Source of the DNA: Candidatus Shapirobacteria bacterium
GTDB lineage: Bacteria > Patescibacteriota > Microgenomatia > UBA12405
NCBI GenBank assembly: GCA_041658125.1
Contig: JBBAAS010000001.1
Span: forward strand, 15,917 to 79,916
DNA: 64,000 bases
Direction of reading: 5' to 3'
In this document: positions 21,307 to 61,667 of the stretch, one piece after another
Layout: each line of letters opens with the position of its first letter
Position numbering within the stretch: the first letter of the stretch is position 1
Made by a program: the position numbers and the translations under genes
The notes under the pieces: generated by a model
The model's database searches: none
Told to the model about the DNA's origin: nothing
What the model saw: only the letters and a program-made list of their open reading frames with translations

Positions 21307-21307
21307 A

Positions 21308-22603: not shown

Positions 22604-22610
22604 TTGATTT

Positions 22611-23429: not shown

Positions 23430-23490
23430 TGAGCTTTAGATAGGTATGTGATAAATTATTTCAAGCATTTTTAAGCTTTATTGATGGAAT

Positions 23491-24567: not shown

Positions 24568-24584
24568 AAAGTAAAAACAAAAAT

Positions 24585-26057: not shown

Positions 26058-26058
26058 T

Positions 26059-26790: not shown

Positions 26791-26792
26791 AT

Positions 26793-27143: not shown

Positions 27144-27191
27144 TTTGATTTATTTATAGACTTTAATGGTTTATATTGGTTAAATATAAGA

Positions 27192-28637: not shown

Positions 28638-28649
28638 CCGTAAGTTTAT

Positions 28650-31354: not shown

Positions 31355-31390
31355 AGAATATTTTTATCGGTTCCTTAATAAATCCATTTA

Positions 31391-35139: not shown

Positions 35140-35143
35140 AAAA

Positions 35144-36349
35144 TTATTTTATTAAAAGATTTAATTGAGAAGAAAACGTATCATAATTGATGGAACTGAA
35201 GATAGTATACTGTTTGAGTATGTTTTTTACAAAGAATTTTTTAAATAGATGTTGATCAATTTGTTTGTCAAACGAAGGGATAGTGGGTGAAAGGTCATAA
35301 AATGCGGAGGATTGGTTGACAATGATGGGGGTACCGTAGTAAATTGCTTCAAAGTTAACGATTCCCAAACTTTCTTCAATTGAAGGGTTAATAAAGATAT
35401 CGATTTGGGAATAAATTTTGGCTTTATCGGATTCGGGGAAATTATAAATAATTTTTAGTTTGTTGGATTTTAAATAGGATTCGAAGTATTTTTCAATTTC
35501 GGACGAACTGCTGGTTTTGGCGCCAGCAAAAAGAACTTGGTAGCCGGCATCGAGAAGATCTTTAAAGATATAAAGATTTTTTCTCGGGCAAATTTGGCCG
35601 ACATAACCGATAATGGGTTTAGAAAAATTATATTTTCTTTTGGTGTTTATTTTGGCTTGTTTTTGTACTTGGTTAATGGTAAACGGACAATAGGTATTGA
35701 TTATAGTTTTTGACTCTATTATTTGATAATTTTTTATAATTTGTTGTTTTTCGAAATTTGTCAGAAAAATAATTTTGGAGGCATAGTCAAAAGCTTTTTG
35801 AAAAAAGGGAGAGTGATTGTAGTAAGAAACGTTGTGATAGGCAGGCAGAACAATGAGAGGTTTTTGATATTTTTTGGCAAAAACGTAGGCGTCGTAGATG
35901 GACTTGGTAGGCATACCAAAACCCATGATGATGTCTGATTTTTTGATAATGTCGATATCTTGTGGGGTATATTGAAGTATCGGGCCGAAAAAGAATGGAG
36001 AGAAAATACCGAACTTGGTGACAAAACGGTGAAGAAATTTGTTAGCAAACCTTTGGGTTTGACGGTGAAGCGAAAGACGATGGATGTGTGAGAGCTTTAG
36101 CGCGTTGGGGCCGGAGCGCGTTTCGGTGTTGGAGTCAATATAGTTGGAGAAAGTTTTGTAGCTATCCAAAGTTAAACCTTGGCCGGTGAAAACATGAACG
36201 GTAAATTTTTGATCAAGAATTTTTTTGATTTCACCGACGAGATATTCGACACCGCCTTTGGCCGGGGGAAAACAATGGACAAAAATGGAGATAACGGGCT
36301 TAGGGGTGGTCATTAAGATATTGCTGACAGATTTCTTTTGACGGGCCAA
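35144..36349 (-). CDS. Glycosyltransferase family 4 (GT-B)
   Basis: 401 aa. C-terminal FINPSIEESLGIVNFEAIYYGTPIIVNQSS. The start may be the internal Met (MTTPKPVISIF, ~36313), reducing overlap with the upstream ABC ATPase gene. Confidence 0.75.
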   Translation of the reverse strand: MARQKKSVSNILMTTPKPVISIFVHCFPPAKGGVEYLVGEIKKILDQKFTVHVFTGQGLTLDSYKTFSNYIDSNTETRSGPNALKLSHIHRLSLHRQTQRFANKFLHRFVTKFGIFSPFFFGPILQYTPQDIDIIKKSDIIMGFGMPTKSIYDAYVFAKKYQKPLIVLPAYHNVSYYNHSPFFQKAFDYASKIIFLTNFEKQQIIKNYQIIESKTIINTYCPFTINQVQKQAKINTKRKYNFSKPIIGYVGQICPRKNLYIFKDLLDAGYQVLFAGAKTSSSSEIEKYFESYLKSNKLKIIYNFPESDKAKIYSQIDIFINPSIEESLGIVNFEAIYYGTPIIVNQSSAFYDLSPTIPSFDKQIDQHLFKKFFVKNILKQYTIFSSINYDTFSSQLNLLIK

Positions 36350-37031
36350 AATTAATTAAGTTTGAATGTTTCAGATAAATAGCCCTAGGGCAGAATAACT
36401 CAACTTGGGGCATGGAGTGGGAAACAAAAAGAATAGTGACGCCAGATTTTTTAAATTCTTCCATTTTGGTAAAACATTTGGCTTGAAATTCGGTGTCGCC
36501 GACGGCCAGGATTTCGTCAACAATAAGAATTTCCGGATCGACGTGGACAGCGATGCTAAAAGCCAAACGCATATACATGCCGGAAGAGTAATGCTTGATA
36601 GGCTGATCGATAAACTCCTGTAATTCGGAAAAATCGACAATACTTTTAAAATATTGTTCAATTTGTTTACGTTTTAAGCCTAATATGGCGCCATTGAGAA
36701 AAATATTCTCCCGGCCGGTGAGTTCGGGGTGCATGCCGGCGCCAAGTTCAATGAGGGGGGATACTTTACCGCTGACAGTGACTTTGCCTTTGGTGGGTGA
36801 CATAACGCCGGCAATAAGCTTAAGAATAGTAGATTTGCCGGAACCATTGGGGCCGATGATACCGATAGTCTCTCCCCTATCGATGGTGAAGTTAATGTCG
36901 TTAAGAGCGGTGAATTTTTGACGGGTTTGCTCGCCGCGAATCAGAGCCGGGATAAATTCCTTGAAGGTTTTTTGACTTTGAAGGTCAAAATCTTTGGTGA
37001 CATGGGAAAATTTAATAATAGGTTCGTTCAT
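36300..37031 (-). CDS. wzt: ABC transporter ATP-binding protein, Wzt/TagH/KpsT-like (no C-terminal carbohydrate-binding domain)
   Basis: 243 aa. Walker A GIIGPNGSGKSTILKLIAG, signature YSSGMYMRLAF, Walker B ILIVDEILAVGD. Confidence 0.85.
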   Translation of the reverse strand: MNEPIIKFSHVTKDFDLQSQKTFKEFIPALIRGEQTRQKFTALNDINFTIDRGETIGIIGPNGSGKSTILKLIAGVMSPTKGKVTVSGKVSPLIELGAGMHPELTGRENIFLNGAILGLKRKQIEQYFKSIVDFSELQEFIDQPIKHYSSGMYMRLAFSIAVHVDPEILIVDEILAVGDTEFQAKCFTKMEEFKKSGVTILFVSHSMPQVELFCPRAIYLKHSNLINFGPSKEICQQYLNDHP

Positions 37032-37033
37032 AG

Positions 37034-37834
37034 TTAAATGTTGTCGGCGAAGATTTTTTCGCGGGATTTAAAATAGGCAAGACCGACTAAAAGGGTGGCA
37101 AAAGAAAGTAGAAGGGCAATCAGAAGGCTACTATATTTAGGCTCCCCTCCCCCGAGGATAACTTGACGGTAGGCGTTGACAATAACGGCGATGGGATTTA
37201 GCTGAAATAATATACGAAAACGGTCGGGGACAATGTCAGCGGGATAGATAATGGGCGTAAGATACATCCAGAGCGTCAGGATTAGCCCCAGGAGATATTG
37301 AATGTCGCGGTAGAGGAGATTGGCGGCGGCGAAGAACAGAGAAAGGCCGAGAGTAAAAATTTGTTGAATAAAAAAGATGGGAATAACCCAAAGAATATTA
37401 AGGGTAATGGGGATTTGATAAATGATCAGATAGACAATGAGGATAGAGGTGGCAAAGAAAAAATCGATTATTTTGGCGATAATAGTGGAGATTACCAAAA
37501 TGGTGCGGGGAAAATAAATTTTGGTAATAAGAGACGACGAGCCAACAAGCGAATTGCAGGCGGAACCAAGCGAATTGCTAAAAAGAGTCCAAGGCAAAAG
37601 AGCGGTGAAAAGAAAAATGGAATATGGAATATTGGAAGCAGAATTGGTGGGGATACGGAGAATCAGGGAAAAGGCAAAACTCATAACTAACATTTGGGCA
37701 AGTGGACTAAGAATAACCCAAAAATAGCCTAAAATTGATTGTTTGTAGCGGGCCTTGATCTCACGACTGGTCATTTGCCAAAGGAGTTCCCGATGGGCAA
37801 TGATGGCTTTGATTTCTGAAATAAGCAGGAGCAT
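37034..37834 (-). CDS. wzm: ABC-2 type polysaccharide export permease, Wzm/TagG-like
   Basis: 266 aa, 6 TM. N-terminal AHRELLWQMTSREIKARYKQSILGYFWVILSP, typical of Wzm. Confidence 0.8.
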   Translation of the reverse strand: MLLLISEIKAIIAHRELLWQMTSREIKARYKQSILGYFWVILSPLAQMLVMSFAFSLILRIPTNSASNIPYSIFLFTALLPWTLFSNSLGSACNSLVGSSSLITKIYFPRTILVISTIIAKIIDFFFATSILIVYLIIYQIPITLNILWVIPIFFIQQIFTLGLSLFFAAANLLYRDIQYLLGLILTLWMYLTPIIYPADIVPDRFRILFQLNPIAVIVNAYRQVILGGGEPKYSSLLIALLLSFATLLVGLAYFKSREKIFADNI

Positions 37835-37867: not shown

Positions 37868-39583
37868 ATGATGAATATGTCACAGAAGAAAAACAAACGA
37901 TTAAGAAATCAGGTAATTGAAGTAACAAGCCAATTGAGTAAAGTTACTTTTGGCGTCAGAGATATTTTAAAAGGAAATTGGAAGTTTTTGGTTTTAGTTT
38001 GTTTGGGGATAATAGCGGTTTATTTGAATTCTTTGAAAGGTGATTTTGTATCAGATGATTATGCTTCGATTACTCAAAATCCAAATATCTACGACACAAT
38101 GCATTACTTGAAGTCAATGAGTCTTCCGGGGATGGTGACTCATATTATTGCTAAGTTATTTGGAATTGGAAGTTCTTTGCCTTATCACGCGGCTAGCTTA
38201 GTTTTGTATTTGGCAATTTGTGTTTTAGCTTTTATTTTTATGGTAACAGTGGCAGGAAAACAAATTGCCAGGATTAGCGCCGTACTGTTTGCCTTTCATC
38301 CGATACACGTAGAAGCGGTTTCTTGGATATCCGGCAGACCATATTTATTGACAACCTTTTTGGTGTTAATATGCTTAATTTCGATGATTCTGTATATGGG
38401 TGGACGAAAGAGAAAGAAATATTTGTATGTAGTTTTTATTAGTATGGTTTTAAACTTTATTAATGATCCGTTCAGGGGTTTTGCTTTGTATCTCTTGGTA
38501 ATGTTAATATTTTTCAGCTTCGGGGATAAGTTTTTTCCAGGAATTAAATTAGGGAGATTTTTTTTATATTTTATGGTTGTTTTGATAGTGACGTTTGCGA
38601 TAGTGTGGCCACTCGCCAAAACCAGGATTTCAGTGGTTAATGGGGGATATAACGCAAGTGAAAGTGTTTTTTATCAGCCGTGGTTTCAATATCCGACAGC
38701 GATAACAAAATATTTGCAGTTGTTATTTATTCCGGTAGATTTGACCCTGTATCACACTTTATTTATTTTGCCCTTGTGGCTTAATTGGGCGGTGATTATT
38801 TTGTATTTGGGATCATTAGTTTATTTTTGGTTTAAAAATAAACTGGTCTTTTTTGCTTTGGCTTTTGTCTTTGTAGCTTCTTCACCCTCGATGTTACCGG
38901 TTAAAGTAAGCTGGTTAGTAGCGGAAAGATATGTGTTTTTTGGATCGGTAGGATTTTGCTTATTGTTAGGAATAGTAATAAACAATATTTTTGTGAAAAA
39001 TAAGTGGGTGGGGATATCGATTTTAGGATTGGTGGCTGGGATATATTTTTTTAGAACATATTTTAGAAACGTGGATTGGCAAACTAATCACAAGTTATGG
39101 GTGAGTACCTGTCAGGTGTCTCCTAATAGTCACAATGCCTGGAATAATATCGGAGATGATTATGACAAATTGGGACAATATGATAATGCCATAAAAGGGT
39201 TTACACAGTCAACGGTAGTAAAGCCAAATTATGCTGATGCTTATCATAATCGGGCAAATATATTTTTTAAAACAGGAAGATTGGACTTGGCTAGAGATAG
39301 TTATAATACGGCTTTGGGTTATTCTTCGGGGTTGTTTCAGACTTATATGAGCTTGATACAGATAGACTTAATGGAAAAAAGGGCTGATTTGGCGATACAG
39401 GATAGTCAAAAGTTATTGAATTTGCAACCGAATAATCCGCAAGCGTGGTATGTGACCGGAGTGGTTTTTGCCAATGTGGGAGATAGGGAAAATGCTAAAA
39501 TGGCGTTTAAAAATGCTTTGACAATTATGCCTGGGTTTACTCAAGCACAACAAGCGTTAATACAACTGTTGGGAGGAAGTTAA
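37868..39583 (+). CDS. GT-C-like membrane protein with C-terminal TPR repeats (TMTC/PMT_2-like)
   Basis: 571 aa. ~10 TM. First loop LKGDFVSDDYASITQNPNI (DD-Y acidic motif seen in TMTC/PMT-type GT-C proteins). C-terminal ~150 aa with 3-4 TPR motifs (AWNNIGDDYDKLGQYDNAIKGF ... ADAYHNRANIFFKTGRLDLARDSY ...). Confidence 0.6.
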   Translation: MMNMSQKKNKRLRNQVIEVTSQLSKVTFGVRDILKGNWKFLVLVCLGIIAVYLNSLKGDFVSDDYASITQNPNIYDTMHYLKSMSLPGMVTHIIAKLFGIGSSLPYHAASLVLYLAICVLAFIFMVTVAGKQIARISAVLFAFHPIHVEAVSWISGRPYLLTTFLVLICLISMILYMGGRKRKKYLYVVFISMVLNFINDPFRGFALYLLVMLIFFSFGDKFFPGIKLGRFFLYFMVVLIVTFAIVWPLAKTRISVVNGGYNASESVFYQPWFQYPTAITKYLQLLFIPVDLTLYHTLFILPLWLNWAVIILYLGSLVYFWFKNKLVFFALAFVFVASSPSMLPVKVSWLVAERYVFFGSVGFCLLLGIVINNIFVKNKWVGISILGLVAGIYFFRTYFRNVDWQTNHKLWVSTCQVSPNSHNAWNNIGDDYDKLGQYDNAIKGFTQSTVVKPNYADAYHNRANIFFKTGRLDLARDSYNTALGYSSGLFQTYMSLIQIDLMEKRADLAIQDSQKLLNLQPNNPQAWYVTGVVFANVGDRENAKMAFKNALTIMPGFTQAQQALIQLLGGS

Positions 39584-40326
39584 TGAAATTTAATTATGAG
39601 AATAAGCAATATTTGGAAATGTTGAGAAATATTGACTATAAATTTTATTCAAAATATATAACCTATGTTAAAAAATACTTGAAGAATAAAAAAGGAAATT
39701 TTTTGGATATTGGTTGTGGAAATGGAAACGCTTTGGTTCCTTTAGCAAAAAATGGTTACAAAAATACGTATGGAGTTGAGATATCAAGGTTACTCTCTAT
39801 TTCGGCCCAAAAAAGAGGCTTGAAAAATATTTTTTTGTATGATGGAAAAAGATTGCCTTTTGACAACAATTGTTTTGATGTGGTTGGATCTTTTGGGGTG
39901 CTGGAACATGCTGAAAACCCGACAGAATTTCTTAAAGAACATGTAAGAACTGTAAAAAGAGGAGGCTATATAGTGGTAACATGCCCAAATTTTTTAACGG
40001 TATTTTTTAGATTAGAACATCCACGGGCGGATAAATTGTTTAAAAGGCTTAGAAATATTCCAAAAATTGTAAAGAAACTATTTAGCAACGAAATTTCTTT
40101 TGAAAAGGTCAATCCAATAATTAGGAAAAAATTTCAAGCTGATGATGATGTGATAACAATATCGAACTTAATAGACGTGGAAAGATTTTTTGAAAGAAAC
40201 AATTGTAGAATTATTAATTCAAATGGATTTATGTTTCGAAATAACAAGTTTTTGAGGGTGATTGGATCAATACCGTTTTTAAGATATTTTTGGCCTTCGT
40301 GTTTTTTAGTAGCTCAAAAAAGATAA
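39583..40326 (+). CDS. Class I SAM-dependent methyltransferase
   Basis: 247 aa. Motif I NFLDIGCGNGNALVPLAKNG, motif II FDVVGSFGVLEH. Confidence 0.75.
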   Translation: MKFNYENKQYLEMLRNIDYKFYSKYITYVKKYLKNKKGNFLDIGCGNGNALVPLAKNGYKNTYGVEISRLLSISAQKRGLKNIFLYDGKRLPFDNNCFDVVGSFGVLEHAENPTEFLKEHVRTVKRGGYIVVTCPNFLTVFFRLEHPRADKLFKRLRNIPKIVKKLFSNEISFEKVNPIIRKKFQADDDVITISNLIDVERFFERNNCRIINSNGFMFRNNKFLRVIGSIPFLRYFWPSCFLVAQKR

Positions 40327-40333
40327 AAGCGGG

Positions 40334-41497
40334 TTATATATTCGAATAGTACTGAATAAGATTTTTAATCAGATAGTTCATCGATAGCTTTTTCTTGGCC
40401 AAAATTACTTTTTTAGTGAGAAGCGCTTGTTGTTTGGGATTATAAAGCATTTTAACGGTTTTTTGAGCTAACTTTTTTAAATCTTTATCGATAATGGCGC
40501 AGTGGTAAGGCTTGACGATATTTGAGCCTTCTGAATCGTTATCGTTAACGATGACAATTTTTTCGGCATTGAGGTAGGCGCTAATTCTCATGGGGCAGCC
40601 GGCTTTTTCGGGGCGTCCATCGCCGGAAAGAAAGATACAGGCGTCAACGGCGGAGAAATAGACAGAGAGTTGTTGGTCGTTTTGATAACCCTGGGGACTG
40701 ATGTCAATAATATTTTTAAAGATGACGGGATCAATTTCACCATTTAAATGTTCGTTTTCATAAATCTTTTTGGGGTTGAAGTTGGAAATTAATTTAATAG
40801 ACTTATCGATTTGATAGATATACTCAAAAGTCTTAAGAAAATTGTAAGTACGGCTATGACCAGCAAAAGTTGTACCAATGGCGAAAAGGTATTTGGTATT
40901 TGGCTCAAGGCCAAGTTGTTGACGACAACCTGTTTTGTCTAATTGATCGTAGTGATTAACACTGATGCCATTAATTATTTTAATAACATTGGTAGCACCA
41001 CGTTTTTCAGCCAAATCTGCAAGAAGTGTGCTACAAACACAGTAATTTTTGAGGTATTTTGGGAAAAAGTGTTCGCAAAAATGAATGTAGGCGGTGACGA
41101 GAGGGTGAACGATAAACGCTTCTTCGCAGAGGTCATCCCAATCCATAACAACTTTTTTGCCAAATAGTTTTAAAAATAAAGCCGGAATATTGGATTCAAA
41201 TTGAGAAGGCATGGCGGTGTGAATAATATCGTATGGCTTGGTTAGTCCGAAGATTAAGGCAATAATACCTCTCAAAATTCGACCATTAATGTAAAAGTTT
41301 AGACTGATTCGCGGGAGTTCATAAAGCGTAAAGTATTGATTGATTTTCTTTTTGCTGATCCAAGGAAAAAACTTTTTATCGGAAGTCACCAATAAGTCGA
41401 TGTTAACCCGGTGTGCTGACAGGGCCGTACAGATATTCATGGCCCGATGGTAACCGCCAAAGTGAATAAAACAGGGTTCGACAAAAAGGACTTTCAT
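40334..41497 (-). CDS. Putative GT-B-fold glycosyltransferase-like protein
   Basis: 387 aa. N-terminal MKVLFVEPCFIHFGGYHRAMN with a Rossmann-like layout. Weaker C-terminal similarity to GT1/GT4. The family call is tentative. Confidence 0.4.
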   Translation of the reverse strand: MKVLFVEPCFIHFGGYHRAMNICTALSAHRVNIDLLVTSDKKFFPWISKKKINQYFTLYELPRISLNFYINGRILRGIIALIFGLTKPYDIIHTAMPSQFESNIPALFLKLFGKKVVMDWDDLCEEAFIVHPLVTAYIHFCEHFFPKYLKNYCVCSTLLADLAEKRGATNVIKIINGISVNHYDQLDKTGCRQQLGLEPNTKYLFAIGTTFAGHSRTYNFLKTFEYIYQIDKSIKLISNFNPKKIYENEHLNGEIDPVIFKNIIDISPQGYQNDQQLSVYFSAVDACIFLSGDGRPEKAGCPMRISAYLNAEKIVIVNDNDSEGSNIVKPYHCAIIDKDLKKLAQKTVKMLYNPKQQALLTKKVILAKKKLSMNYLIKNLIQYYSNI

Positions 41498-43060
41498 TTA
41501 TTTAATAATTTGATATTTTTTAGCGGCCTGGAGACGATGAGTTTTTAGCTCGCCGAATTTTAACTGGGAAAAAAACATGGTGAGCAAGTTTTTGGTAATT
41601 CTAAGTAAGTAAAAGAAATCTTCGCGGTTGTGAATTTTTCTGATAATGGCCAAGGGATGAGTTAGCGGCCAAAGTAATCGGTTAATCATTAATTTTTTAT
41701 CGGCGATATTTCTTAGAGAATGAAGTTCTGCGGCAGAGAAATATTTGTTGCCGGCACCAACATATCCGGAAAAAAGCTCGCCAATGTGGTTTTTAGAAAG
41801 TTGAGAGGGGTGAATGATATTTTCCTGAAGCATGATTTTAGTAACGTCAGTTTGAGGAAAGGGGATAAGAAGAATAAAGACAACAAAATCAGAATAAGAC
41901 TGAATGGCATATTTAAAAGTGGTCTTAATTTGATTTTTAGTTTCATAAGGAAAGCCGATGATGTAGGTGGAAAAAATCCAAAGACCAATATCTGAAGCAG
42001 TTTTGATAATCTCTTTGACTTTTTTAAGGTCGAGGTTTTTACGGATAAATTTTTGTGTTTCAGGGTGACCACTTTCAATACCAAAAGTGAGGCGATAACA
42101 ACCACTTTTTTTCATTTTTTCTAAAAGTGGCCGATCCAAGGTCCAAATAGCGATGCCATTAGGCGTGGTCCACTTGATATCGATTTTCTTAGCAATAAGA
42201 AGATCGCAAATTTTTTCCAGACGTTCCCTGCTAACTGAAATATTATCGTCCAAAAAATGAATTTCCCGAACGCCATAACGATCGATTACGGATTGAATTT
42301 CTTCAACGATCCTTTCGGCACTATAAGGTCGCCAAATTCGTCCCCAGATGCCGGGAACGGCACAATAAATACAATTACCCGGACAACCCCGACTGGTGAT
42401 GATTTCAGTTGATGGTGTTCGATAAGCATAGGATGAGGCATCGCGAGAAGTATTGAGGTAAATGTCCATCGGAAGTAGATGACGAGCCGGAGGAGGTAGT
42501 TGATTTAAGTCGGAAATATGGGGTCGGTTAGGATTAAGAATGAAATTTCCTTTTGAATCACGAGTGGCAGTGCCGGCAATATTAAAAACATTTTGGTGTT
42601 CAGATAGCTTTTGAGCAATTTCGAGCATGGTTTCTTCCCCTTCTCCGATAACAACAAGATCGACAGATTTTTGGGAAAGGACGACCTTGGGAAGAATGGA
42701 AGCATGGGAACCGCCAAGAATAGTTAGGATTTTTGGGTTGACCTTTTTAGCCAGCTTAGTGATTTCGTAAGCATCGGTAGCAAAGGCGGTGAACATTGAG
42801 GAAACACCAATTATGTCCGGTTGATAATACTTAATTTTTTGAACAATTTGGTTAGGAGTAAGGCCAACACGGATAGCGTGATGGGCTTTGATAATAGTGT
42901 TAAGACCTTCGGCGAGGACATCGATAATGGCGACAGAATAACCATGAACTTCAAGATAGGCGGCAACACTGGCTAGACCCAATGGGGGAACGCATCCGGG
43001 GGTAGTAGTGTCCCTTTGGCGAATGGTCATGGCAGGGCAAAAGAAAAGAATTTTTAACAT
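41498..43060 (-). CDS. Cobalamin-binding (class B) radical SAM enzyme
   Basis: 520 aa. B12-binding-like N-domain (GYSVAIIDVL ... IIGVSSMF ... TILGGSHAS), cluster motif SRGCPGNCIYCAV. Confidence 0.8.
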   Translation of the reverse strand: MLKILFFCPAMTIRQRDTTTPGCVPPLGLASVAAYLEVHGYSVAIIDVLAEGLNTIIKAHHAIRVGLTPNQIVQKIKYYQPDIIGVSSMFTAFATDAYEITKLAKKVNPKILTILGGSHASILPKVVLSQKSVDLVVIGEGEETMLEIAQKLSEHQNVFNIAGTATRDSKGNFILNPNRPHISDLNQLPPPARHLLPMDIYLNTSRDASSYAYRTPSTEIITSRGCPGNCIYCAVPGIWGRIWRPYSAERIVEEIQSVIDRYGVREIHFLDDNISVSRERLEKICDLLIAKKIDIKWTTPNGIAIWTLDRPLLEKMKKSGCYRLTFGIESGHPETQKFIRKNLDLKKVKEIIKTASDIGLWIFSTYIIGFPYETKNQIKTTFKYAIQSYSDFVVFILLIPFPQTDVTKIMLQENIIHPSQLSKNHIGELFSGYVGAGNKYFSAAELHSLRNIADKKLMINRLLWPLTHPLAIIRKIHNREDFFYLLRITKNLLTMFFSQLKFGELKTHRLQAAKKYQIIK

Positions 43061-43061
43061 T

Positions 43062-44522
43062 TTATTGCCTTGATTTGGCGGTTAATTTTTGGAAAATTTT
43101 AACAAGTAACTGACTACGGCTAATAAGAGAATGACTAATATCGGAAATTGGTTTAATTCTGGTGATAAGATAGAAAAAATATCCAAGATTACGGCCAAAC
43201 CTAAATTGAAAAAGTTTTTTTTCATAGAGGTTAAAGCCGATCTTCATAATATCATGTCGCTGAGTTTTGGTGAATTTGGTAGTTTCAAAAATAGGAGTGT
43301 TGTCCCGATAGGAAATGTTTTGAAGATAAGTTTTAGAAGGAACTAAAAACTTGGCATTTTTAATGGCCCAATCATAGACCGAGGTGCCTGGATAAGGAAC
43401 TAAATTGTAGAAATTAACGAAATTAGTGGGAAGGCTTTGAGCAAAGATTAAAGTTTCTTTGGCATCGGCATAAGATTCGTCCTGGTGGCCGATAATAAAA
43501 TTGACGGCATTTTTGATGCCGGCCGTGTTGGTCCAATCAATAGTTTTGCGGACCTGATCAAGTCGAATATTTTTACCGATAGTATCGATAACTTTTTGGC
43601 TGCCGGATTCGCAGCCGTAAGCGATAAAAAAACAACCGGCCTGTTTGAGTTTAAAAAGAAGTTCTCGGTCAACCCGGTCGACCCGAATACCATTGTAGAG
43701 CTGAAATTTAATTTTGAGATGGTGGTTGATGATCAGATCACAGATATCTTTGGCTCGTTTTAGATCAAGGGTGAAGCAGTCATCGTTGATATCAAAAGTG
43801 TGATAACCCTTTTTGTGCCAATATTTTATTTCTTTAAAAACATTGTCGGCGCTACGGGGTCGAAAACATTGTCCCATCGATAGACGGACGGAACAGTAAT
43901 TGCAGCCATAGGGACAACCGCGGGAAGTGATAATGGGAATAGTGTTTTCCCTAAAACAACCGTATCGTGAAAGGTCAAAAACATCAAAATCGGGAAACGG
44001 AAGCTGATCCAGATCAATAAGATATTTGTTTTTAGGATTGAGAACGATCTGGTTTTTATTTTTCCAGATTAGACCGGGGACTTGAGAATAATCAGGTTTT
44101 TTTTGGATAAATTCTTTTAAGAATTTAAAAAAGGTGTCTTCGGCTTCACCAATAATGGCAAAATTTACCCCGGTGGATTGAATGATTTGTTCACGAACAG
44201 CAGAAACATGGGGTCCTCCAGCAATAATAGGGATGGAAGTGTACTTTTGAATATTTTTGACTAGTTTATCCATAAAAACCGAGGCATAGCTAAAACCGGT
44301 TACCCCAATAATATCCGGCTTAAAATTGTCGATAAGGTAATAAAGCTTTTGGTGATTGGTTTCAACGCCTTCGTCAAATACTCTTACCTGATACCCCTTA
44401 GATACGAGAAACGATGAAAGATAGGCAATACCGACGTGAGGATAGAGAGGAGGAGCAACATTGTTGCCGTACATTGATTTAACCTTGGGAATAGCAAAGA
44501 GTATTTTTTGGCTATTTTTCAT
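43062..44522 (-). CDS. Cobalamin-binding (class B) radical SAM enzyme
   Basis: 486 aa. GYQVRVFDEG ... IIGVTGFS ... IIAGGPHVS, cluster motif SRGCPYGCNYCSV. Tandem with 41498..43060 (1-bp gap). Confidence 0.8.
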   Translation of the reverse strand: MKNSQKILFAIPKVKSMYGNNVAPPLYPHVGIAYLSSFLVSKGYQVRVFDEGVETNHQKLYYLIDNFKPDIIGVTGFSYASVFMDKLVKNIQKYTSIPIIAGGPHVSAVREQIIQSTGVNFAIIGEAEDTFFKFLKEFIQKKPDYSQVPGLIWKNKNQIVLNPKNKYLIDLDQLPFPDFDVFDLSRYGCFRENTIPIITSRGCPYGCNYCSVRLSMGQCFRPRSADNVFKEIKYWHKKGYHTFDINDDCFTLDLKRAKDICDLIINHHLKIKFQLYNGIRVDRVDRELLFKLKQAGCFFIAYGCESGSQKVIDTIGKNIRLDQVRKTIDWTNTAGIKNAVNFIIGHQDESYADAKETLIFAQSLPTNFVNFYNLVPYPGTSVYDWAIKNAKFLVPSKTYLQNISYRDNTPIFETTKFTKTQRHDIMKIGFNLYEKKLFQFRFGRNLGYFFYLITRIKPISDISHSLISRSQLLVKIFQKLTAKSRQ

Positions 44523-45537
44523 TAAAAGATGGTTTTAGAAATATAGACTTTCTAATTTTAGCAATTAGATTTTCATGAACAAAAATATATGGGAATATTT
44601 CCTTGTCAGAACAAACTCTTTGTTGTTGGATGTGTTTTCTTTTAAGCTTAGTTGATTTGAGTGACGACAGGTTCCAGAGTATTCCTTTTATAATTAGAAA
44701 AGACTCGTTAAATTTACCAGTGATAAAAAGATAAAGAGAAAAGAAGAAATAAATAGTAATTTGTCTTGGTAAGATCTTCAAGAGATTGGTTGTTTCCAGG
44801 TTTTTTATTAAGGAGAGGATGTAATTTTTAGTACCATGAAATCGAAGATTGTAAGTGGCAAAGTTTTTATTTAACAGTTTAAAACTACCGGAAAACCCAT
44901 GATAAACAATTGATTTTGGACAAAAAAAGGTTTGATAGCCTGAAAGCCAGGCTCGCCAGCAAAGATCAGTTTCTTCCATATAAATAAAATAGTCCGGATC
45001 AAAACCGCCGATTTGATCAAATACCTTTTTGCGGATAAACATGCCGGCTGATTTGGCGGCAAAGATGGGAACTTCTTTGTCGTGTTGGCCGTGATCGAAA
45101 TCGCCGTAGGTGGCCCGATGAGAGAGGAGACCGAATTGATTTAGATAGTCTCCGGCATAATCGAAATACCGGGGATGATTGATGAGAAGCAGTTTAGACT
45201 GAAGACAGCCGATTTTTGGATTTTTAGTAAAAAGGGAGTTGGCGGCAATTAACCAATTTTTATCAACCTTAGTATCGTTGTCAAGAAAAGCTAAATAGCG
45301 ACCGGAAGCTATTTTAGCGCCTTGATTGCGGGCATAAGAAGGACCGAAGTTATCGGTGAGGGTAATAATTTTTATCTGAGGATATTTTTTTTGAATAATT
45401 GATGAAGTATTGTCAGTGGAAGCATTATCAACGACGATAATTTCGTAGTTCCGGGTTTTAATTTTTAAGATTGACTGAAGACAGGCTTCAAGTACTTTCC
45501 GACCGTTATAGTTGACGATGATGATTGATACCTCCAT
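44512..45537 (-). CDS. Glycosyltransferase family 2 (GT-A)
   Basis: 341 aa. VSIIIVNYNGRKVLEACLQSI ... EIIVVDNASTDNT. Confidence 0.85.
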   Translation of the reverse strand: MEVSIIIVNYNGRKVLEACLQSILKIKTRNYEIIVVDNASTDNTSSIIQKKYPQIKIITLTDNFGPSYARNQGAKIASGRYLAFLDNDTKVDKNWLIAANSLFTKNPKIGCLQSKLLLINHPRYFDYAGDYLNQFGLLSHRATYGDFDHGQHDKEVPIFAAKSAGMFIRKKVFDQIGGFDPDYFIYMEETDLCWRAWLSGYQTFFCPKSIVYHGFSGSFKLLNKNFATYNLRFHGTKNYILSLIKNLETTNLLKILPRQITIYFFFSLYLFITGKFNESFLIIKGILWNLSSLKSTKLKRKHIQQQRVCSDKEIFPYIFVHENLIAKIRKSIFLKPSFNEK

Positions 45538-45539: not shown

Positions 45540-46328
45540 TTATTTTTTTGTTAAGATAAGGTGGTAACGAGTGGCAAATCTTTCGTCTTTGTCAATGGTA
45601 TCAATTAATAAACCGCTTATATTAGTTATAAAAAAGATAATAGGACAAGTAACTAGTAATAAGATTTTAACGGGAACAGCTCCTTCAGTAATTTTCCTAA
45701 TTATATATTGGTTAATGATTGTTGCCAGTGACGTACCAAAAAATGATTTGACAACAATAGAGTTAACTCGAAAGTTGTTTTTATTTGCTAATTTTGTTAA
45801 ACATGATTTGGTATATCTGAAGTAATCATAACCGGTATCACCACCATGATCACGATAGATAAACGGTACGGAAATAAGGCATACGCCTCCTTTTTTTAGA
45901 ACACGTCCGGCCTCACTAAAAAATTTATTAGGGTCACTGATATGCTCCAGAACTTCAAAGGCACAGTACGTATCAAAAGTTTTATCTTTGTAAGGAAGAT
46001 TAAGAGCATTACAAACCCTGTCGACACTGTTTGTAGTTTTCGACTTTCCGTAAAGGTAGCTGGTGATTAATCCCAAGGCGCCTGATTTTTTATTATGATG
46101 TTCAAAGATCGTCTTCCAGGAAGAATAATCGGTTGAAATATATGAATGAATATTCTTTCCATATTGTTTTAACACCCGTTCTTTGGTTGAACCATTACCA
46201 CAACCGGTTTCGATTACTTTTCCTTTAAACTTTTTATATAATATTTCATTGGCGAAATCAGCATTTCTAAATTCTAACCAGTGAGGATAAAACGGTGTCC
46301 CTGTTAGTAAAAATCTGATTATATTCAT
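45540..46328 (-). CDS. Class I SAM-dependent methyltransferase
   Basis: 262 aa. Motif I KVIETGCGNGSTKERV, later FDTYCAFEVLEHI. Confidence 0.7.
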   Translation of the reverse strand: MNIIRFLLTGTPFYPHWLEFRNADFANEILYKKFKGKVIETGCGNGSTKERVLKQYGKNIHSYISTDYSSWKTIFEHHNKKSGALGLITSYLYGKSKTTNSVDRVCNALNLPYKDKTFDTYCAFEVLEHISDPNKFFSEAGRVLKKGGVCLISVPFIYRDHGGDTGYDYFRYTKSCLTKLANKNNFRVNSIVVKSFFGTSLATIINQYIIRKITEGAVPVKILLLVTCPIIFFITNISGLLIDTIDKDERFATRYHLILTKK

Positions 46329-46369: not shown

Positions 46370-47539
46370 TTAATCAAAAACGGGGTTAAGCGAGCAGCAC
46401 CTAAAACAAGCAGGAATCAATCGATTTTTTTTGATGTATTTTTGAAATTTTTGGGTTTTTTGACTATGCCAAATGTGGTCTAGGGTATTTTTTTGAATGT
46501 TGCCAAGAATGTAGCCATGACACATTTCAACGTCACCGTTACCACGAAGATAGATTTGGTTGAACGGTGAAGTGCACTTAGAGTGAATTGAAGGAAATTT
46601 GCCGGTATAAAAACTATCAATATCGGTGGTGTTTGGAAAACTTACGCGCAAACGGGTGTGTGAAGCAGCTAGTTTTTGTTTGATAGTATCAAGTTTCTGA
46701 GAGATTAATTGTCTTTGGAAACCATCAAAATAAATTTTATTTGAGCCGTTGTCTTCTCCCCAAACATCAGAGCCAAAGTTTTTGGTTTGACTCAACTTTT
46801 CCTGTTGTTTTTTTATAGAATTATAATAATAGAAGTGATGGCTAATGGACCATTGGTCAACCCCAAGACTTTGAGCGATATTAAAGATTTGATCAAAGTT
46901 TTCAAGATTAGCCTTAGAGATGACGGTGGCAAGACGGATATTAGGGAGGATATTTTTTCCTCTTAATTTGACAATTTTTTCAATACCTTTAAGAATTTGA
47001 GTAAATGAGTTTTTGACTAAACCGCGCTCATATTGAGTTGGTTCGTCGGGACCATCGAGAGAAATAGCTAAAAAATCCAGACCAGAGTCTATTAATTCGG
47101 GAGCTATTTTTTCAAGCAGAAGACCATTGGTAACCAAACCTTTGGTCATTTTTTGGCGGGTAAGATGGTTGATGATTTTGATAATTTCCGGATGTAAAAG
47201 CGGTTCGCCGCCGGCCAGAGAAATAGATGGCGAATATGGGGCTATTTGATCGAAGAACGGAGCCAATTTTGAATACGGCATTTCAGTTAGATTTCTTAAG
47301 CGGGATTGTGCAACGTGGCACATGGGACAGTTAAAGTTACACTTTTCCGTGATAAAGCAGTTAATAAATCGAGGGTACGGTGTTGGTTTATAGCGATTGA
47401 AAGAATCCTGAAATTCATGCCAAGCAGTTTTGGGATATTTGTAGGCGAGGATAAATTTTTTGTGAAAATCGATATTAATCACGGTTGTAAGAGTTAATAA
47501 TAACTTTGGCATTTTTATCACTGAAGTGTTCGATAGCAA
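46370..47539 (-). CDS. Radical SAM enzyme with C-terminal SPASM/twitch-like Cys-rich domain
   Basis: 389 aa. ITEKCNFNCPMCHV (CX3CX2C). C-terminal CTSPFNQIYLRGNGDVEMCHGY ... IPACFRCCS auxiliary-cluster-like cysteines. Confidence 0.7.
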   Translation of the reverse strand: MLSNTSVIKMPKLLLTLTTVINIDFHKKFILAYKYPKTAWHEFQDSFNRYKPTPYPRFINCFITEKCNFNCPMCHVAQSRLRNLTEMPYSKLAPFFDQIAPYSPSISLAGGEPLLHPEIIKIINHLTRQKMTKGLVTNGLLLEKIAPELIDSGLDFLAISLDGPDEPTQYERGLVKNSFTQILKGIEKIVKLRGKNILPNIRLATVISKANLENFDQIFNIAQSLGVDQWSISHHFYYYNSIKKQQEKLSQTKNFGSDVWGEDNGSNKIYFDGFQRQLISQKLDTIKQKLAASHTRLRVSFPNTTDIDSFYTGKFPSIHSKCTSPFNQIYLRGNGDVEMCHGYILGNIQKNTLDHIWHSQKTQKFQKYIKKNRLIPACFRCCSLNPVFD

Positions 47540-48638
47540 AGGCTTTAGTTGTTTTGGACATGGTTTTTATTTGATTTGGATGATTGATAAGCCATTTGAT
47601 CGTTTTTTGAAGATTTTTGACCGTAGGATTAAGTGAGATGCCGATCTTGTCATTATACATTTCGGTGACAGAACCTTTGTTGCCAGTAATTACCGGTCGA
47701 CCGCAACTTAAACCTTCGATAATTTGGTTGGGGAAGGCTTCTTCGACCAGATTGGGAAGAATGACAAAATCGGAGGCGGCGAGGTAATTAATGATTTGAG
47801 GATGGTTTAGCCGACCAAGAATTTTAAAATTAGAAACAGAAAGCGATTGGGTGATTAATGTTTTGGCGTCGGGTCCGTCTCCAGCCAGAAGAAAGAGAAC
47901 GTTTTGGGGGAGTTTTTGGGCTACCTTTAACAGATTAAAAATGCCTTTGGTTTTAACAAAGCGACCAAAATAAAAAAAAACCAGTGATTTTTGAGGAATA
48001 TTTAAAAGACGACGAGCAGTGGTTTTATTTTTGGGAACGAACTCTTTTTGATTAATCCAATAACGAAAAACTTTGATTTTTGAAGCCGGTAAGCCGATTG
48101 AGATAAGTTCTTTTTTGGATTGATGACTGACTGCCAGGATGGTGTCAAAACCGGAAAATGTCCATTTAAAAATTTTGGTGTAAATTGAATTTGGATTAAG
48201 CCGATGATAGATAAAGTGAGTACTGACCACGGAAGTTTTTTGGGGGAGAAAAAGTTTAATAATTCGGGTAATAAAGGCGGCGGCAAAGCCATGAGCGTGA
48301 ATGACATCAAACTTATTTTGTTGTTTTAAGCAGTAGGAGAGACTGTTGAAAAAAAGTCCGGGGACTATGTATAAAAATTGAAATAATGGATAGGGAGTGG
48401 TTTTATCAAAAAGCCCAAGACCATACCACCAGTAGCGGTGGATGGTGAGATTGGGATGGTTTTCGTGTTTAAGATAATTAACGACAATTGATAGAGGTTT
48501 GTAGGTTAAAACAGTGGTCGGAAAATTATGAGATGACAAAAAATCGGTAAGTTTATTAAGGTGGGTTTCAACTCCGCCGATATTAGGAAAAAAGAAAGGG
48601 GTGATAATAAGGATGCGGGGCTTATTTGGTTTTAACAC
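47475..48638 (-). CDS. Glycosyltransferase family 4 (GT-B)
   Basis: 387 aa. ILIITPFFFPNIGGVETHLNKL ... VILPNLVEEAFPNQIIEGLSCGRPVITGNKG. Confidence 0.8.
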   Translation of the reverse strand: MLKPNKPRILIITPFFFPNIGGVETHLNKLTDFLSSHNFPTTVLTYKPLSIVVNYLKHENHPNLTIHRYWWYGLGLFDKTTPYPLFQFLYIVPGLFFNSLSYCLKQQNKFDVIHAHGFAAAFITRIIKLFLPQKTSVVSTHFIYHRLNPNSIYTKIFKWTFSGFDTILAVSHQSKKELISIGLPASKIKVFRYWINQKEFVPKNKTTARRLLNIPQKSLVFFYFGRFVKTKGIFNLLKVAQKLPQNVLFLLAGDGPDAKTLITQSLSVSNFKILGRLNHPQIINYLAASDFVILPNLVEEAFPNQIIEGLSCGRPVITGNKGSVTEMYNDKIGISLNPTVKNLQKTIKWLINHPNQIKTMSKTTKAFAIEHFSDKNAKVIINSYNRD

Positions 48639-49305
48639 GAAAACTTTTTAAGATATAAATAAATTGAAAAGCTAAAAGATTTTGAAAAATGGGAAATCGG
48701 TGTCCAAGACCAGTAGGAATAGTTTTAATAACGGAGAAGCCGGTCGATTGAAAAAGTTTAATGCCTGTTTTTAGGGTAAAAAAACGTAAATGATCCGGAC
48801 TAAGAATACCAAATTGATAATCAAAAGAACCAAAAAGAAGCTTTAGCCGAATTTCTAAACGGGCGATATTGGGCAAGGAAACTATTACCATGCCGTTTGG
48901 TTTAAGATATTTGTGAATATCAAGTAAGACCTTGTCGGGGGCTGGTAGGTGTTCAAGAATGTCGGATAAAACAATATAATCATATCGATGATGGGGAATA
49001 TTAAGATGAGGATGATAAAGATCCCGAATATATGTATGACGGTAGTGTTTTTGGGCAATTTTTATTAATTTTGGATTGATATCAATACCATCGACGATAA
49101 CTTTTTTTCTTAGGAGTTGTTTGCCTAAAAGTCCAGTATTGCAACCAACATCGAGAACTTCTGAATTATTAGAAATTAAGTTGTAGATAAGACTATGGGG
49201 GCTATGAGGCGATGTATTGAAAGGAATAGGGCCGTCTTTTTGAAAAATTTTCATATTATTGTTGCCAGTGCGATCGGTCAATGATGTTTTTTTGGCCGAT
49301 AACAT
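48622..49305 (-). CDS. Class I SAM-dependent methyltransferase
   Basis: 227 aa. Motif I EVLDVGCNTGLLGKQLL, YDYIVLSDILEHL. Confidence 0.75.
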   Translation of the reverse strand: MLSAKKTSLTDRTGNNNMKIFQKDGPIPFNTSPHSPHSLIYNLISNNSEVLDVGCNTGLLGKQLLRKKVIVDGIDINPKLIKIAQKHYRHTYIRDLYHPHLNIPHHRYDYIVLSDILEHLPAPDKVLLDIHKYLKPNGMVIVSLPNIARLEIRLKLLFGSFDYQFGILSPDHLRFFTLKTGIKLFQSTGFSVIKTIPTGLGHRFPIFQNLLAFQFIYILKSFRVKTK

Positions 49306-50266
49306 TTTTTAATGTAGCGGAAAAATAGACAAAAAAACTAATTAAACAGGCAAGCGGATGAAAAAACCAGGCAAAATCGGGTTTTTTTAGATAACCACGG
49401 AATGAGTCAAAAATGGGAGGAATAAGAGTGATGGTGTAAAGACTAAATTTAACGGTGGCAGAGCGATTGTTTTTTTGCCAATTGAATTGTCTAATGTTTT
49501 GAAATTGATAAAAGTCGACTATACGGCGTTTTTGTTTACGAATAAACTTTTTGATCGATGATTCGCAAAAGGTATGAATAATACCGACTTTAACTTTGGC
49601 AAAATAGAGAGGTTGATGAGTTTGATGAATGACAGAAGTAATAATATCGATATCAAAAAAATAATCACCCTTAAAATAATTTTTAAGAAAATCGTGGCGA
49701 AAAATGGCACCATTAGCACCAATTGTAGGAAGCAGTTCGTTTGGATTAAGTTTGATTTTAAGATAATTAGGAAAGTCTTGAGTTTCAATTTTTAAACCGG
49801 TCCACTTGCCGGACAGATAACTATATCGATCGTAAATACCGGAGATGTAAGCGTAAGGATCATTGGCACCGATCAGAGCAGAATATCTTTCAGTAAAGCC
49901 AGCATCGCGACGATAAGTAAAACTGATCGGTTCACTACCAATAATTTGAGGGTCTTTTTGAAGAGGCAAAAGCATTTTTTTAAGCCAATTTTTTGAAGGT
50001 AAAAGATTATCAGAGTCAAGGAAAACGAGATATTTGCCTTTGGCATGGCGAATGCCAACGGCCTTGCCGGCTTCTCCGGTTTTTAGCGGGTTTTTAAAAA
50101 TTTTGGCCTTGAAGTTTTTAGCGACAATTAGAGTGTTGTCGGTAGAACCACCGTCGGCAATAATAATTTCGTAATCTTTAATGGTTTGAAGAGAAATTGA
50201 TTGAAGACAATCTTTTAGGACTTTTCCGGCATTGAGGGTGGGAGTGATGAAACTAACTAAAATCAT
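49256..50266 (-). CDS. Glycosyltransferase family 2 (GT-A)
   Basis: 336 aa. ILVSFITPTLNAGKVLKDCLQSI ... EIIIADGGSTDNT. Confidence 0.85.
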   Translation of the reverse strand: MILVSFITPTLNAGKVLKDCLQSISLQTIKDYEIIIADGGSTDNTLIVAKNFKAKIFKNPLKTGEAGKAVGIRHAKGKYLVFLDSDNLLPSKNWLKKMLLPLQKDPQIIGSEPISFTYRRDAGFTERYSALIGANDPYAYISGIYDRYSYLSGKWTGLKIETQDFPNYLKIKLNPNELLPTIGANGAIFRHDFLKNYFKGDYFFDIDIITSVIHQTHQPLYFAKVKVGIIHTFCESSIKKFIRKQKRRIVDFYQFQNIRQFNWQKNNRSATVKFSLYTITLIPPIFDSFRGYLKKPDFAWFFHPLACLISFFVYFSATLKNVIGQKNIIDRSHWQQ

Positions 50267-61616: not shown

Positions 61617-61667
61617 TAAGTTTAAGAAGATAGATTAGTTTAATATAAACTTAATTGTAGGTATAAA

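Follow-up and report, generated by a model that had tools for sequence, protein, structure and literature searches.

Two anciently diverged class B-type radical SAM enzymes and an upstream GT2 glycosyltransferase as a conserved candidate glycan-tailoring module in Shapirobacteria

What would a bacterium of the candidate phyla radiation (CPR) do with two different B12-type radical S-adenosylmethionine (SAM) enzymes, encoded head to tail in the middle of a polysaccharide locus, and on what would they act? The question is raised by a stretch of 64,000 nucleotides from Candidatus Shapirobacteria bacterium (GenBank assembly GCA_041658125.1, contig JBBAAS010000001.1, positions 15,917 to 79,916; hereafter the window, whose own numbering is used throughout), in which the genes that we call A and B lie among glycosyltransferase and methyltransferase genes. 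A first reading, made from the sequence alone, had described A and B as tandem paralogs and proposed that radical C-methylation or another radical tailoring of sugars is central to the glycan made here. We find that A and B, together with the GT2 glycosyltransferase gene upstream of them, form what appears to be a conserved, translationally coupled glycan-tailoring module with C-methylation as the likeliest chemistry, a composite reading that we regard as evenly balanced between right and wrong. The genes concerned are these:

44512–45537, minus strand: GT2 glycosyltransferase (Pfam Glycos_transf_2, 104 bits), the upstream member of the GT2-B-A module
43062–44522, minus strand: radical SAM gene B, 486 amino acids (aa), in which an N-terminal Rossmann domain of the B12-binding type is followed by a radical SAM TIM barrel and a helical, basic C-terminal tail
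41498–43060, minus strand: radical SAM gene A, 520 aa, built like B except that its helical C-terminal domain is longer
40334–41497, minus strand: putative GT-B glycosyltransferase, 387 aa, downstream of A with a gap of 0 nucleotides (nt)

The junction between B and A reads TAA-A-ATG, with base 43061 as the single intervening base, so that the two open reading frames (ORFs), their lengths, their orientation and the 1-nt gap are as first described; the stop of the GT2 gene overlaps the start of B by 11 nt. The four genes are thus packed as tightly as would be expected for translational coupling.

That A and B belong to the radical SAM superfamily is in itself unsurprising. In Pfam scans, which covered window ORFs of at least 150 aa, A scored 85.3 bits with the B12-binding family PF02310 and 93.7 bits with Radical_SAM (PF04055), and B scored 56.8 and 64.0 bits, all above the gathering cut-offs. 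The cluster motif is SRGCPGNCIYC in A (C226-x3-C230-x2-C233) and SRGCPYGCNYC in B (C203-x3-C207-x2-C210), and its cysteines are invariant in 25 homologs of A and 31 homologs of B. AF2 (AlphaFold2) models of A (predicted local distance difference test, pLDDT, 80.5; predicted template modeling score, pTM, 0.84) and of B (pLDDT 88.3, pTM 0.87) each consist of a five-stranded Rossmann domain, then a partial TIM barrel, then a helical C-terminal domain. Both proteins therefore combine the CX3CX2C motif, the profile match above threshold and the partial TIM barrel that define the superfamily with the feature common to TokK, TsrM, OxsB and QCMT, an N-terminal five-stranded Rossmann-type B12 domain ahead of the radical SAM domain, and the B12-binding-like N-domains, the SRGCPxxCxYC motifs and the cobalamin-type fold on structure prediction anticipated by the sequence-only reading are all present. 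A and B are accordingly anciently diverged class B-type radical SAM enzymes, predicted to be catalytically intact from the cluster and SAM motifs that they retain; as orthogroups they are uncharacterized, sharing the architecture of class B (in which base-off cobalamin lies ~11 Å from the cluster) while falling within none of its named subfamilies.

Three more genes of this type in the window bear on how A and B came to stand side by side:

24585–26057, plus strand: C, accessory B12-type radical SAM gene, 490 aa, in the low-GC part of the locus (PF02310 74.5 bits, PF04055 90.3 bits) and followed by a GT2 gene
27192–28637, plus strand: D, accessory B12-type radical SAM gene, 481 aa (PF02310 80.3 bits, PF04055 109.4 bits)
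50253–51722, minus strand: E, divergent B12-type radical SAM gene, 489 aa (Radical_SAM 39.6 bits), flanked by two GT2 genes

Two genes alike in architecture and orientation and 1 nt apart look at first sight like recent tandem duplicates, redundant or diverging, and the neighborhood might also be an accident, the chance that two of five such genes are adjacent among 56 ORFs being ~0.32. Either explanation is now extremely improbable. A and B are only 28.7% identical and no closer to one another than either is to C and D; A is nearer to D (32.8%), C and D share 31.7%, and E is the most distant at 24–28%. A neighbor-joining tree was built from 41 B12-type radical SAM proteins of the window and of 12 related loci. 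It places A, B and E in three different orthogroups, all with members in other genomes and those of A and B reaching other phyla, and C and D have no orthologs among the 12 loci. The low identity and the separate orthogroups rule out recent tandem duplication and make A and B ancient, superfamily-level paralogs; in that sense 'tandem paralogs' is apt, though not in the sense of a duplicated pair. As to accident, a chance of ~0.32 means that the window alone proves nothing, and the significance of the adjacency comes from its being kept in other genomes, where the B-to-A order recurs at 56–63% identity.

That conservation was established from public contigs and GTDB representative genomes containing relatives of A, whose ORFs were matched to the proteins of the window. 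Among the 11 loci with an A ortholog of at least 60% identity, a B ortholog (56–63%) lies directly upstream of A, at a gap of −4 to +5 nt, in 10 (in seven of eight once near-identical loci are removed). An ortholog of the GT2 gene is in turn found directly upstream of B in loci L005, L006, L007, L011, L013, L014 and L024, and a GT2 gene also precedes a B-like gene in a Methanolobus locus (L039) and in a locus where the B-like protein is fused to another domain (L042). The complete GT2-B-A order extends to a Chloroflexi metagenome-assembled genome (MAG; L014), where B is 49% and A 43% identical to the window proteins, and the distant L013 has the order GT2, B, class I methyltransferase, A, methyltransferase. 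Where an A-like gene occurs without B, it can still be next to a glycosyltransferase: in L015 it overlaps a similar GT2 gene by 4 nt, in L016, from Bathyarchaeota, such a GT2 gene is abutted by a second A-like gene lying ~4 kb upstream of the main one, and in L017 there is a weak GT2 match (24%) downstream. The Methanolobus locus continues from GT2 and the B-like gene to a class I methyltransferase gene; a Methanoperedens locus has an epimerase, an A-like gene and a methyltransferase in series with DegT, GT2/GT4 and PMT_2 genes close by; and a locus in an Actinobacteria MAG contains GT4, methyltransferase and B12-type radical SAM genes. Given this recurrence in Patescibacteria, Chloroflexi, archaea and Actinobacteria, the tie between the A and B clades and glycosyltransferases, already suspected from the window, is both robust and old.

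The module is itself part of a longer conserved block, whose other members in the window, with the exporter genes to which it leads, are the following:

51709–52695, minus strand: GT2-like membrane glycosyltransferase upstream of E (Pfam; Kyte-Doolittle 19-residue mean of 3.09 at residue 254)
49256–50266, minus strand: GT2 glycosyltransferase of the conserved block (Pfam; orthologs 58–62% identical)
48622–49305, minus strand: class I SAM methyltransferase (Pfam)
47475–48638, minus strand: GT4 glycosyltransferase of the conserved block (Pfam Glycos_transf_1, Glyco_transf_4)
46370–47539, minus strand: radical SAM/SPASM enzyme of the conserved operon core (Pfam Radical_SAM 73.7 bits, SPASM 44 bits)
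45540–46328, minus strand: class I SAM methyltransferase with a hydrophobic C-terminal segment (Pfam Methyltransf_11/23; Kyte-Doolittle 19-residue mean of 2.3 at residue 216)
37868–39583, plus strand: polytopic membrane protein with C-terminal TPR repeats, GT-C-like (Pfam TPR families), divergent and adjoining the exporter genes
37034–37834 and 36300–37031, minus strand: ABC-2 permease (ABC2_membrane, PF01061) and ATPase (ABC_tran, PF00005), an exporter pair of the Wzm/Wzt or TagG/TagH kind

The order shared among the related loci is GT2, E, GT2, a variable position, GT4, SPASM or a further B12-type radical SAM gene ('F'), GT2, B and A, after which come, in some cases, an extra B12-type radical SAM gene, then the GT-B-like gene, the TPR membrane protein, sometimes a CofD-family gene, and the ABC-2 permease and ATPase. 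The loci that share the block are labeled Woesebacteria, Shapirobacteria or 'Patescibacteria group', with three (L008, L009 and L012) under 'uncultured Gammaproteobacteria'. In a single locus there can be as many as six or seven radical SAM genes of the B12 type and two or three of the SPASM type. The arrangement, first thought possibly unusual, is what related loci of Shapirobacteria and Woesebacteria normally show, and no oddity of the window genome. The exporter pair is the most conserved part of these loci (69–78% identity), the TPR membrane protein is kept in all of them (50–57%), and the radical SAM/SPASM protein, which reaches none of the NCBIfam cut-offs, has orthologs at 53–64%; as public gene calls give it a product of 380 aa, its true start is probably nine codons inside the ORF. 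The slot of the 48622–49305 methyltransferase is filled in related loci by a SPASM radical SAM gene or by two epimerase genes. Of the neighbors named by the sequence-only reading, the GT2, methyltransferase and radical SAM/SPASM genes are as described, but the 'GT-B-like' gene downstream of A is almost without profile support: it has orthologs (50–54% identity) in L006, L007, L011, L012 and L024, its product has no Pfam family match and 19.5 bits to an NCBIfam model for a lipopolysaccharide N-acetylglucosamine transferase, its L006 ortholog has a weak Glyco_transf_4 match, and a PDB sequence search gave no firmer assignment, so that 'GT-B-like' is a weakly supported name for it.

Two side observations concern these loci. 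In L003, L006 and L007 (and in L004) the genes for the TPR membrane protein and for the ABC-2 permease have a CofD-family gene between them, and the corresponding position of the window has no CofD gene, being occupied by an extra class I methyltransferase gene at 39583–40326. Several GTDB representative MAGs with Patescibacteria-type loci (L008, L009, L012, L013 and L017; ~62–63% to A) have the titles 'uncultured Gammaproteobacteria' or 'Pseudomonadales', which are probably placeholder or mistaken labels.

If the module is real, its partners should say something about its substrate. Three B-like proteins (53–59% identical to B) have a class I methyltransferase domain fused at the C-terminus, and because this domain differs in kind from one protein to the next, the fusions look independent. 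The one in L042 is encoded directly after a GT2 gene. When 1.84 billion representative sequences were searched with a profile, 16,480 relatives were obtained at an E-value of 1e-30 or better; among the top 150, which were inspected, the A-like proteins P0336 (34% to A) and P0348 are fused to class I methyltransferases and P0352 (37%) to a DegT/DnrJ/EryC1 sugar aminotransferase. Furthermore, orthogroup F fills in L003, L008 and L014 the slot between the SPASM and GT2 genes that is held in the window by the methyltransferase at 45540–46328. The fusions and this exchange suggest that the substrates are sugars and that the function is closely tied to methylation, and they are also compatible with a keto- or deoxy-sugar made by the radical SAM enzyme and then aminated or methylated by the partner. 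That the substrate of A and B is a sugar or glycan we consider distinctly probable.

The same search returned larger proteins: three giants (P0257, P0291 and P0262; 2096–2331 aa) of chained B12-binding and radical SAM modules, an N-terminal SPASM module being joined in P0257 to five Radical_SAM and three B12-binding matches, and two-module versions of ~1000 aa (P0293, P0332 and P0363). Over the six there are two to five Radical_SAM segments each. As candidates for Rosetta-stone fusions of A with B they were rejected, their modules being only 23–31% identical to every paralog in the window.

A substrate other than carbohydrate, whether a peptide or protein, as for ApyD or for MgmA (whose target is methyl-coenzyme M reductase), or else a lipid or polyprenyl carrier, as for HpnR, HpnJ or ladderane-type enzymes, would find some encouragement in the profile scores, as ApyD (NF050148) is the best NCBIfam model for B (160 bits) and the second best for A (164 bits), MgmA is among the closest structures, and HpnJ and lipid-type models score 120–154 bits. 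These scores are all far under their cut-offs, however; every context examined, over six phyla, is rich in glycosyltransferases; and the fusion partners are a sugar aminotransferase and methyltransferases of the small-molecule type. We consider such a substrate very improbable. A role in the synthesis of ribosomally synthesized and post-translationally modified peptides was rejected for two further reasons: the genes of the block abut or overlap, so that a precursor-peptide gene would not fit between them, and all the contexts are glycan loci.

A closer rival keeps the sugar but moves the reaction earlier, to nucleoside diphosphate (NDP)-activated sugars before glycosyl transfer; it overlaps the readings of the chemistry considered below. 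The DegT family to which one A-like protein is fused acts on NDP-keto-sugars, epimerase/dehydratase and nucleotidyltransferase genes are found beside A- or B-like genes in L006, L039, L040 and L042, and neither A nor B has a transmembrane segment. Yet in the window and its closest relatives radical SAM genes alternate with glycosyltransferase genes, not with NDP-sugar enzymes; the most constant partner is a specific GT2 gene directly upstream; the sugar-directed enzymes GenK, GenD1 and MoeK5 act on glycosides rather than on NDP-sugars; and the C-terminal tails of A and B, which are basic and amphipathic, are compatible with a membrane-peripheral location. An NDP-sugar stage is therefore a less attractive possibility, and we think it unlikely. 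Membrane anchoring of A or B was itself rejected in view of the missing transmembrane segment, and with basic amphipathic tails as the only indication their membrane association is speculative; several neighboring GT2 and methyltransferase proteins have hydrophobic C-termini.

It is tempting to speculate that the module works as follows. The GT2 encoded at 44512–45537 would add a sugar to the growing chain, which is probably linked to polyprenyl phosphate at the cytoplasmic face of the membrane. B, and then A, would reductively cleave SAM to yield a 5'-deoxyadenosyl radical and abstract hydrogen from an unactivated carbon of that sugar, most probably followed by transfer of a methyl group from methylcobalamin to give C-methylation. 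Class I methyltransferases of the locus may methylate the same residues at O or N, and the finished chain would exit via the ABC-2 transporter (36300–37834), probably to be handled outside by the many GT-C/PMT-like proteins. The lipid-linked stage, the use of cobalamin, the sugar substrate and the methyl transfer in this scheme are what we infer from gene content, homology and context.

Is the reaction in fact a methylation? C-methyltransferases dominate the characterized class B enzymes and are present in every characterized group, according to a 2026 review, which also states that there are more than 80,000 class B radical SAM sequences, most groups having no known function, and lists GenK, GenD1/GntE, Fms7 and MoeK5 as sugar-directed members. 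Methyl transfer as the chemistry of A and B we place slightly short of an even proposition. The earlier proposal of radical C-methylation or another radical tailoring of sugars thus fares well as to the glycan-tailoring context, and methylation as such cannot be deduced, since neither protein reaches the cut-off of any family. The best NCBIfam model for A is the Sden_1168 P-methyltransferase (NF038361), with 232.8 bits against a cut-off of 575 and residues 4–396 aligned to model positions 65–460; B scores 129.8 bits on the same model and its own best score, that for ApyD, stands against a cut-off of 750. Scores for BchE (TIGR02026, at least 481 bits required) and HpnJ (TIGR03471, at least 578) are 145 and 154 bits for A and 127 and 125 bits for B. 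C scores best with BchE (189.5 of 481 bits), and D (244.9) and E (140) with HpnJ, whose cut-off is 577.6. The clustering check suggested with the sequence-only reading, whether the proteins group with BchE-like oxidative cyclases, is therefore uninformative: C, D and E are best on BchE or HpnJ and A and B elsewhere, with scores of less than half the cut-off throughout. P-methylation was rejected as a candidate, the score of A being 40% of the cut-off and there being no phosphoenolpyruvate mutase or other phosphonate gene among the scanned ORFs.

The principal competitor of methylation is a radical sugar chemistry in which A or B or both transfer no methyl group, their N-domains lacking cobalamin or using it otherwise than as a methyl carrier: either a 1,2-diol dehydration or oxidation like that of AprD4, providing a keto- or deoxy-sugar for the partner enzymes, or a rearrangement like those of HpnJ or OxsB. 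AprD4 binds no cobalamin although it belongs to the same similarity network as class B enzymes; the DegT/DnrJ/EryC1 aminotransferases, to one of which an A-like protein is fused, are a class that needs a keto-sugar; the class I methyltransferase so often found with B could be the true methylating enzyme; C, D and E lean toward HpnJ or BchE; and independence of cobalamin would suit a CPR bacterium. Set against this, A and B score only 93.8 and 81.5 bits with the AprD4 family (NF033070, cut-off 500), the E-to-A block of the window contains no AprD3-like reductase or DegT gene, and, as described next, their N-domains look like those of cobalamin binders, with polar residues strongly conserved at the edges of the Rossmann loops in a manner that suggests a bound ligand. 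Non-methylating chemistry of the AprD4, HpnJ or OxsB kind we would call doubtful, though it deserves to be taken seriously.

Much of this choice depends on the cobalamin site. The structures closest to A and B by sequence are AprD4 (6FD2), 9CCB (which according to the literature is MgmA/QCMT, a cobalamin-dependent glutamine C-methyltransferase), TokK, CysS, OxsB and TsrM. In fold comparisons the model of A scored 25.4 with TsrM, 25.1 with AprD4, 23.6 with CysS, 23.0 with MgmA and 20.9 with TokK, and that of B 32.8 with AprD4, 31.0 with TsrM, 29.9 with MgmA and 29.7 with CysS; as a discriminator the comparison was discarded, cobalamin-dependent and cobalamin-independent relatives not being separated by it, and the fold alone leaves cofactor use unsettled because AprD4 has the same layout without the cofactor. 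More can be learned from the N-domains by themselves. PDB searches with that of A returned TokK, the Moorella corrinoid protein 1y80, OxsB and MgmA, and with that of B TokK, 4Q37, TsrM and CysS, all of them true cobalamin binders, whereas the matches of A and B to AprD4 in the PDB searches lie in the radical SAM barrel and never reach its N-domain. Of the classical B12 motif, A retains the SxL...GG portion (S87-x-M89 and G116-G117) without DxHxxG, which is likewise missing from the known class B enzymes with their base-off cofactor. The invariant N-domain residues of both families cluster in the loops after all five beta-strands (in A, D47/E51/G52, M89-F90-T91, G116-G117-x-H119 and G139-E140-G141-E142), which is where the ligand of a Rossmann domain lies. 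The residue two positions after the third cluster cysteine is an invariant valine (V235 in A, V212 in B), as it is in MgmA; in a low-identity alignment the equivalent in TokK is W215, between the corrin and the cluster. Even with the alignment of TokK W76 described below, these observations on balance favor, short of proof, a functional cofactor site in A and B.

Several considerations weigh against cobalamin-dependent methylation in a lipid-linked glycan pathway. None of the five proteins A to E reaches a curated NCBIfam cut-off, the best scores of A and B being those given above. The lower-axial W76 of TokK aligns, at low identity, with T91 of A, which like its neighbors M89 and F90 is invariant. 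An Rfam scan found no cobalamin riboswitch in the 64-kb window, nor does the window contain a cobalamin transporter gene (a scan for tRNA genes, run alongside, also returned nothing). CPR bacteria are poor in cofactor biosynthesis. The DegT fusion fits chemistry that forms a keto-sugar at least as well as it fits methylation, and no priming phosphoglycosyltransferase (PF00953, PF02397) is found in the scanned window ORFs, though the gene may lie elsewhere in the genome, so that the lipid-linked stage is purely conjectural. Finally, the 2026 review points out that non-methylating members of class B cannot be distinguished from methylases by sequence or structure.

The wider locus agrees with a glycan pathway, and the description of it as rich in radical SAM and methyltransferase genes and served by an ABC-2 exporter is supported by its Pfam content. 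About 20 glycosyltransferase genes are distributed across the whole window, and the four class I methyltransferase genes (starting at 30551, 39583, 45540 and 48622) and one FkbM methyltransferase gene (34117) match the counts first given. The count of five cobalamin-type radical SAM genes needs qualification: A to D are solid, and E is doubtful, its B12-binding match (PF02310, 22.9 bits) being below the cut-off of 32.1 and its cluster motif a non-canonical CX4CX2C (CWWGQCTFC; CWWGKCTFC in the L006 ortholog).

Other features of the window are recorded here for their own sake. The plus strand is G-rich throughout positions 1–64000 (GC skew +0.17 to +0.36) independently of gene direction, and the skew at third codon positions is ~+0.4 to +0.5 in plus-strand genes and −0.4 to −0.6 in minus-strand genes; there is thus a strong mutational strand bias, with the majority of genes on the C-rich strand and a thiolase gene (20035–21306, skew ~0) as the exception. 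The segment from ~20000 to 36000 is 31–34% GC, against 36–41% in the conserved block, and contains C, D, a 634-aa protein without a family, a 909-aa GT4/DUF4214 protein and the FkbM methyltransferase; two more assemblies of the same strain (L001 and L002) end at ~40.3 kb and ~41.4 kb. The segment gives the impression of varying between strains, and it may have been acquired. Beside C, at 20035–24567, lie genes for the thiolase, a 3-hydroxyacyl-CoA dehydrogenase, a polysaccharide deacetylase/DUF3473 protein and a GNAT protein, which suggest an amino sugar decorated with an acyl group, for example of the hydroxybutyryl type. Between the GT2 gene at 26059–26790 and D, a plus-strand ORF of 116 aa (26793–27143) with two hydrophobic segments and no NCBIfam match resembles the small membrane partners common beside polyprenol-phosphate GT2 enzymes. 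In the middle of the locus, on the minus strand at 17278–18551, an AbiEii-type nucleotidyltransferase toxin gene (17278–18012) and an upstream gene for a 180-aa protein without a family are possibly a type IV toxin-antitoxin pair. Large membrane-protein genes stand in tandem at 55320–63471 (minus strand), those at 56860 and 58421 with PMT/PMT_2 matches, that at 62221 with a weak GT87 match and those at 55320 and 59994 with no Pfam family, and a PMT-like gene (4234–5661) adjoins a Wzy_C-like gene (5658–7082); for a single locus, this is an unusually large set of probable extracytoplasmic glycosyltransferases.

Should the module be what it appears to be, two orthogroups of class B-type enzymes would have a precise, conserved GT2 partner in CPR bacteria, Chloroflexi and archaea, and hence a concrete and testable substrate hypothesis. 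A broader picture, which we put forward tentatively and hold to be rather less probable than the composite reading given at the outset, is that Shapirobacteria, Woesebacteria and scattered anaerobes from Chloroflexi to methanogens possess a glycan assembly line in which GT2 enzymes are each paired with a dedicated class B-type radical SAM enzyme (E, F, B or A), together with a SPASM enzyme, to build a core with several radical-installed C-methyl, deoxy or rearranged sugars; this would be the first case of class B radical SAM enzymes acting on a cell-envelope polysaccharide, and scavenged corrinoid would be obligatory for envelope biogenesis in a genome-reduced CPR bacterium. Searches of open-access papers turned up no account that places class B radical SAM enzymes in operons for cell-surface polysaccharides or in the glycan loci of CPR bacteria. 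A related Shapirobacteria genome is largely a single 735-kb contig, and that such a genome keeps a glycan locus of at least 64 kb with six iron-sulfur/SAM enzymes indicates that glycan chemistry matters for the symbiotic lifestyle. If cobalamin is truly needed, there is a hidden vitamin dependency in CPR bacteria; if not, the cobalamin-independent branch so far represented by AprD4 is enlarged.

How does the locus compare with systems already known? Its frame is that of the ABC-transporter-dependent pathways, Wzm/Wzt or TagG/TagH, with the adjacent ABC-2 permease and ATPase amid GT2, GT4 and methyltransferase genes that characterize them. It differs in its five B12-type and one SPASM radical SAM genes, in a Wzt without the carbohydrate-binding extension (243 aa), in the lack of an identified priming transferase and in its host, a CPR bacterium with many GT-C/PMT-like genes. 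A pairing of glycosyltransferase and radical SAM enzyme is familiar from the HpnI/HpnJ/HpnK module for the hopanoid cyclitol ether, composed of a GT2, a B12-type radical SAM enzyme and a deacetylase. There, as proposed here, a sugar newly attached by the GT2 is remodeled by its radical SAM partner; HpnJ is the best model for D and E, and a polysaccharide deacetylase gene is also found in the window (22611–23429) and in L014. Nevertheless, HpnJ scores in the window are only 125–245 bits, hopanoid genes are absent, and the acceptor would be a glycan built by ~20 glycosyltransferases. The P-methyltransferases Sden_1168 and PhpK, for all that they supply the best family of A, find no counterpart in a window whose scanned ORFs include no phosphonate gene. 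AprD4, which performs a 1,2-diol dehydration in apramycin biosynthesis, shares the two-domain layout, ranks first or joint first among neighbors by structure and sequence and, like A and B if the proposed substrate is right, acts on a glycoside; it differs in that the likeness is confined to the barrel and that no AprD3-type reductase gene stands beside A or B.

Another parallel is with the class B methyltransferases TokK, CysS, MgmA/QCMT and TsrM, with which A and B share the order of B12-type Rossmann domain and radical SAM barrel, the CX3CX2C motif, the absence of DxHxxG, consistent with base-off binding, and a hydrophobic residue two positions after the third cysteine, all at an identity of only 14–22% to any solved member. 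In context they recall garosamine formation in gentamicin, likewise a sugar-tailoring setting with class I methyltransferases alongside. GenK, GenD1/GntE, Fms7 and MoeK5, the known sugar-directed members of the class, are all known as enzymes of antibiotic pathways and belong to natural-product clusters, whereas A and B lie in a cell-surface glycan operon with an ABC-2 exporter, in loci that, unlike the natural-product systems, carry several such enzymes (three to seven) each.

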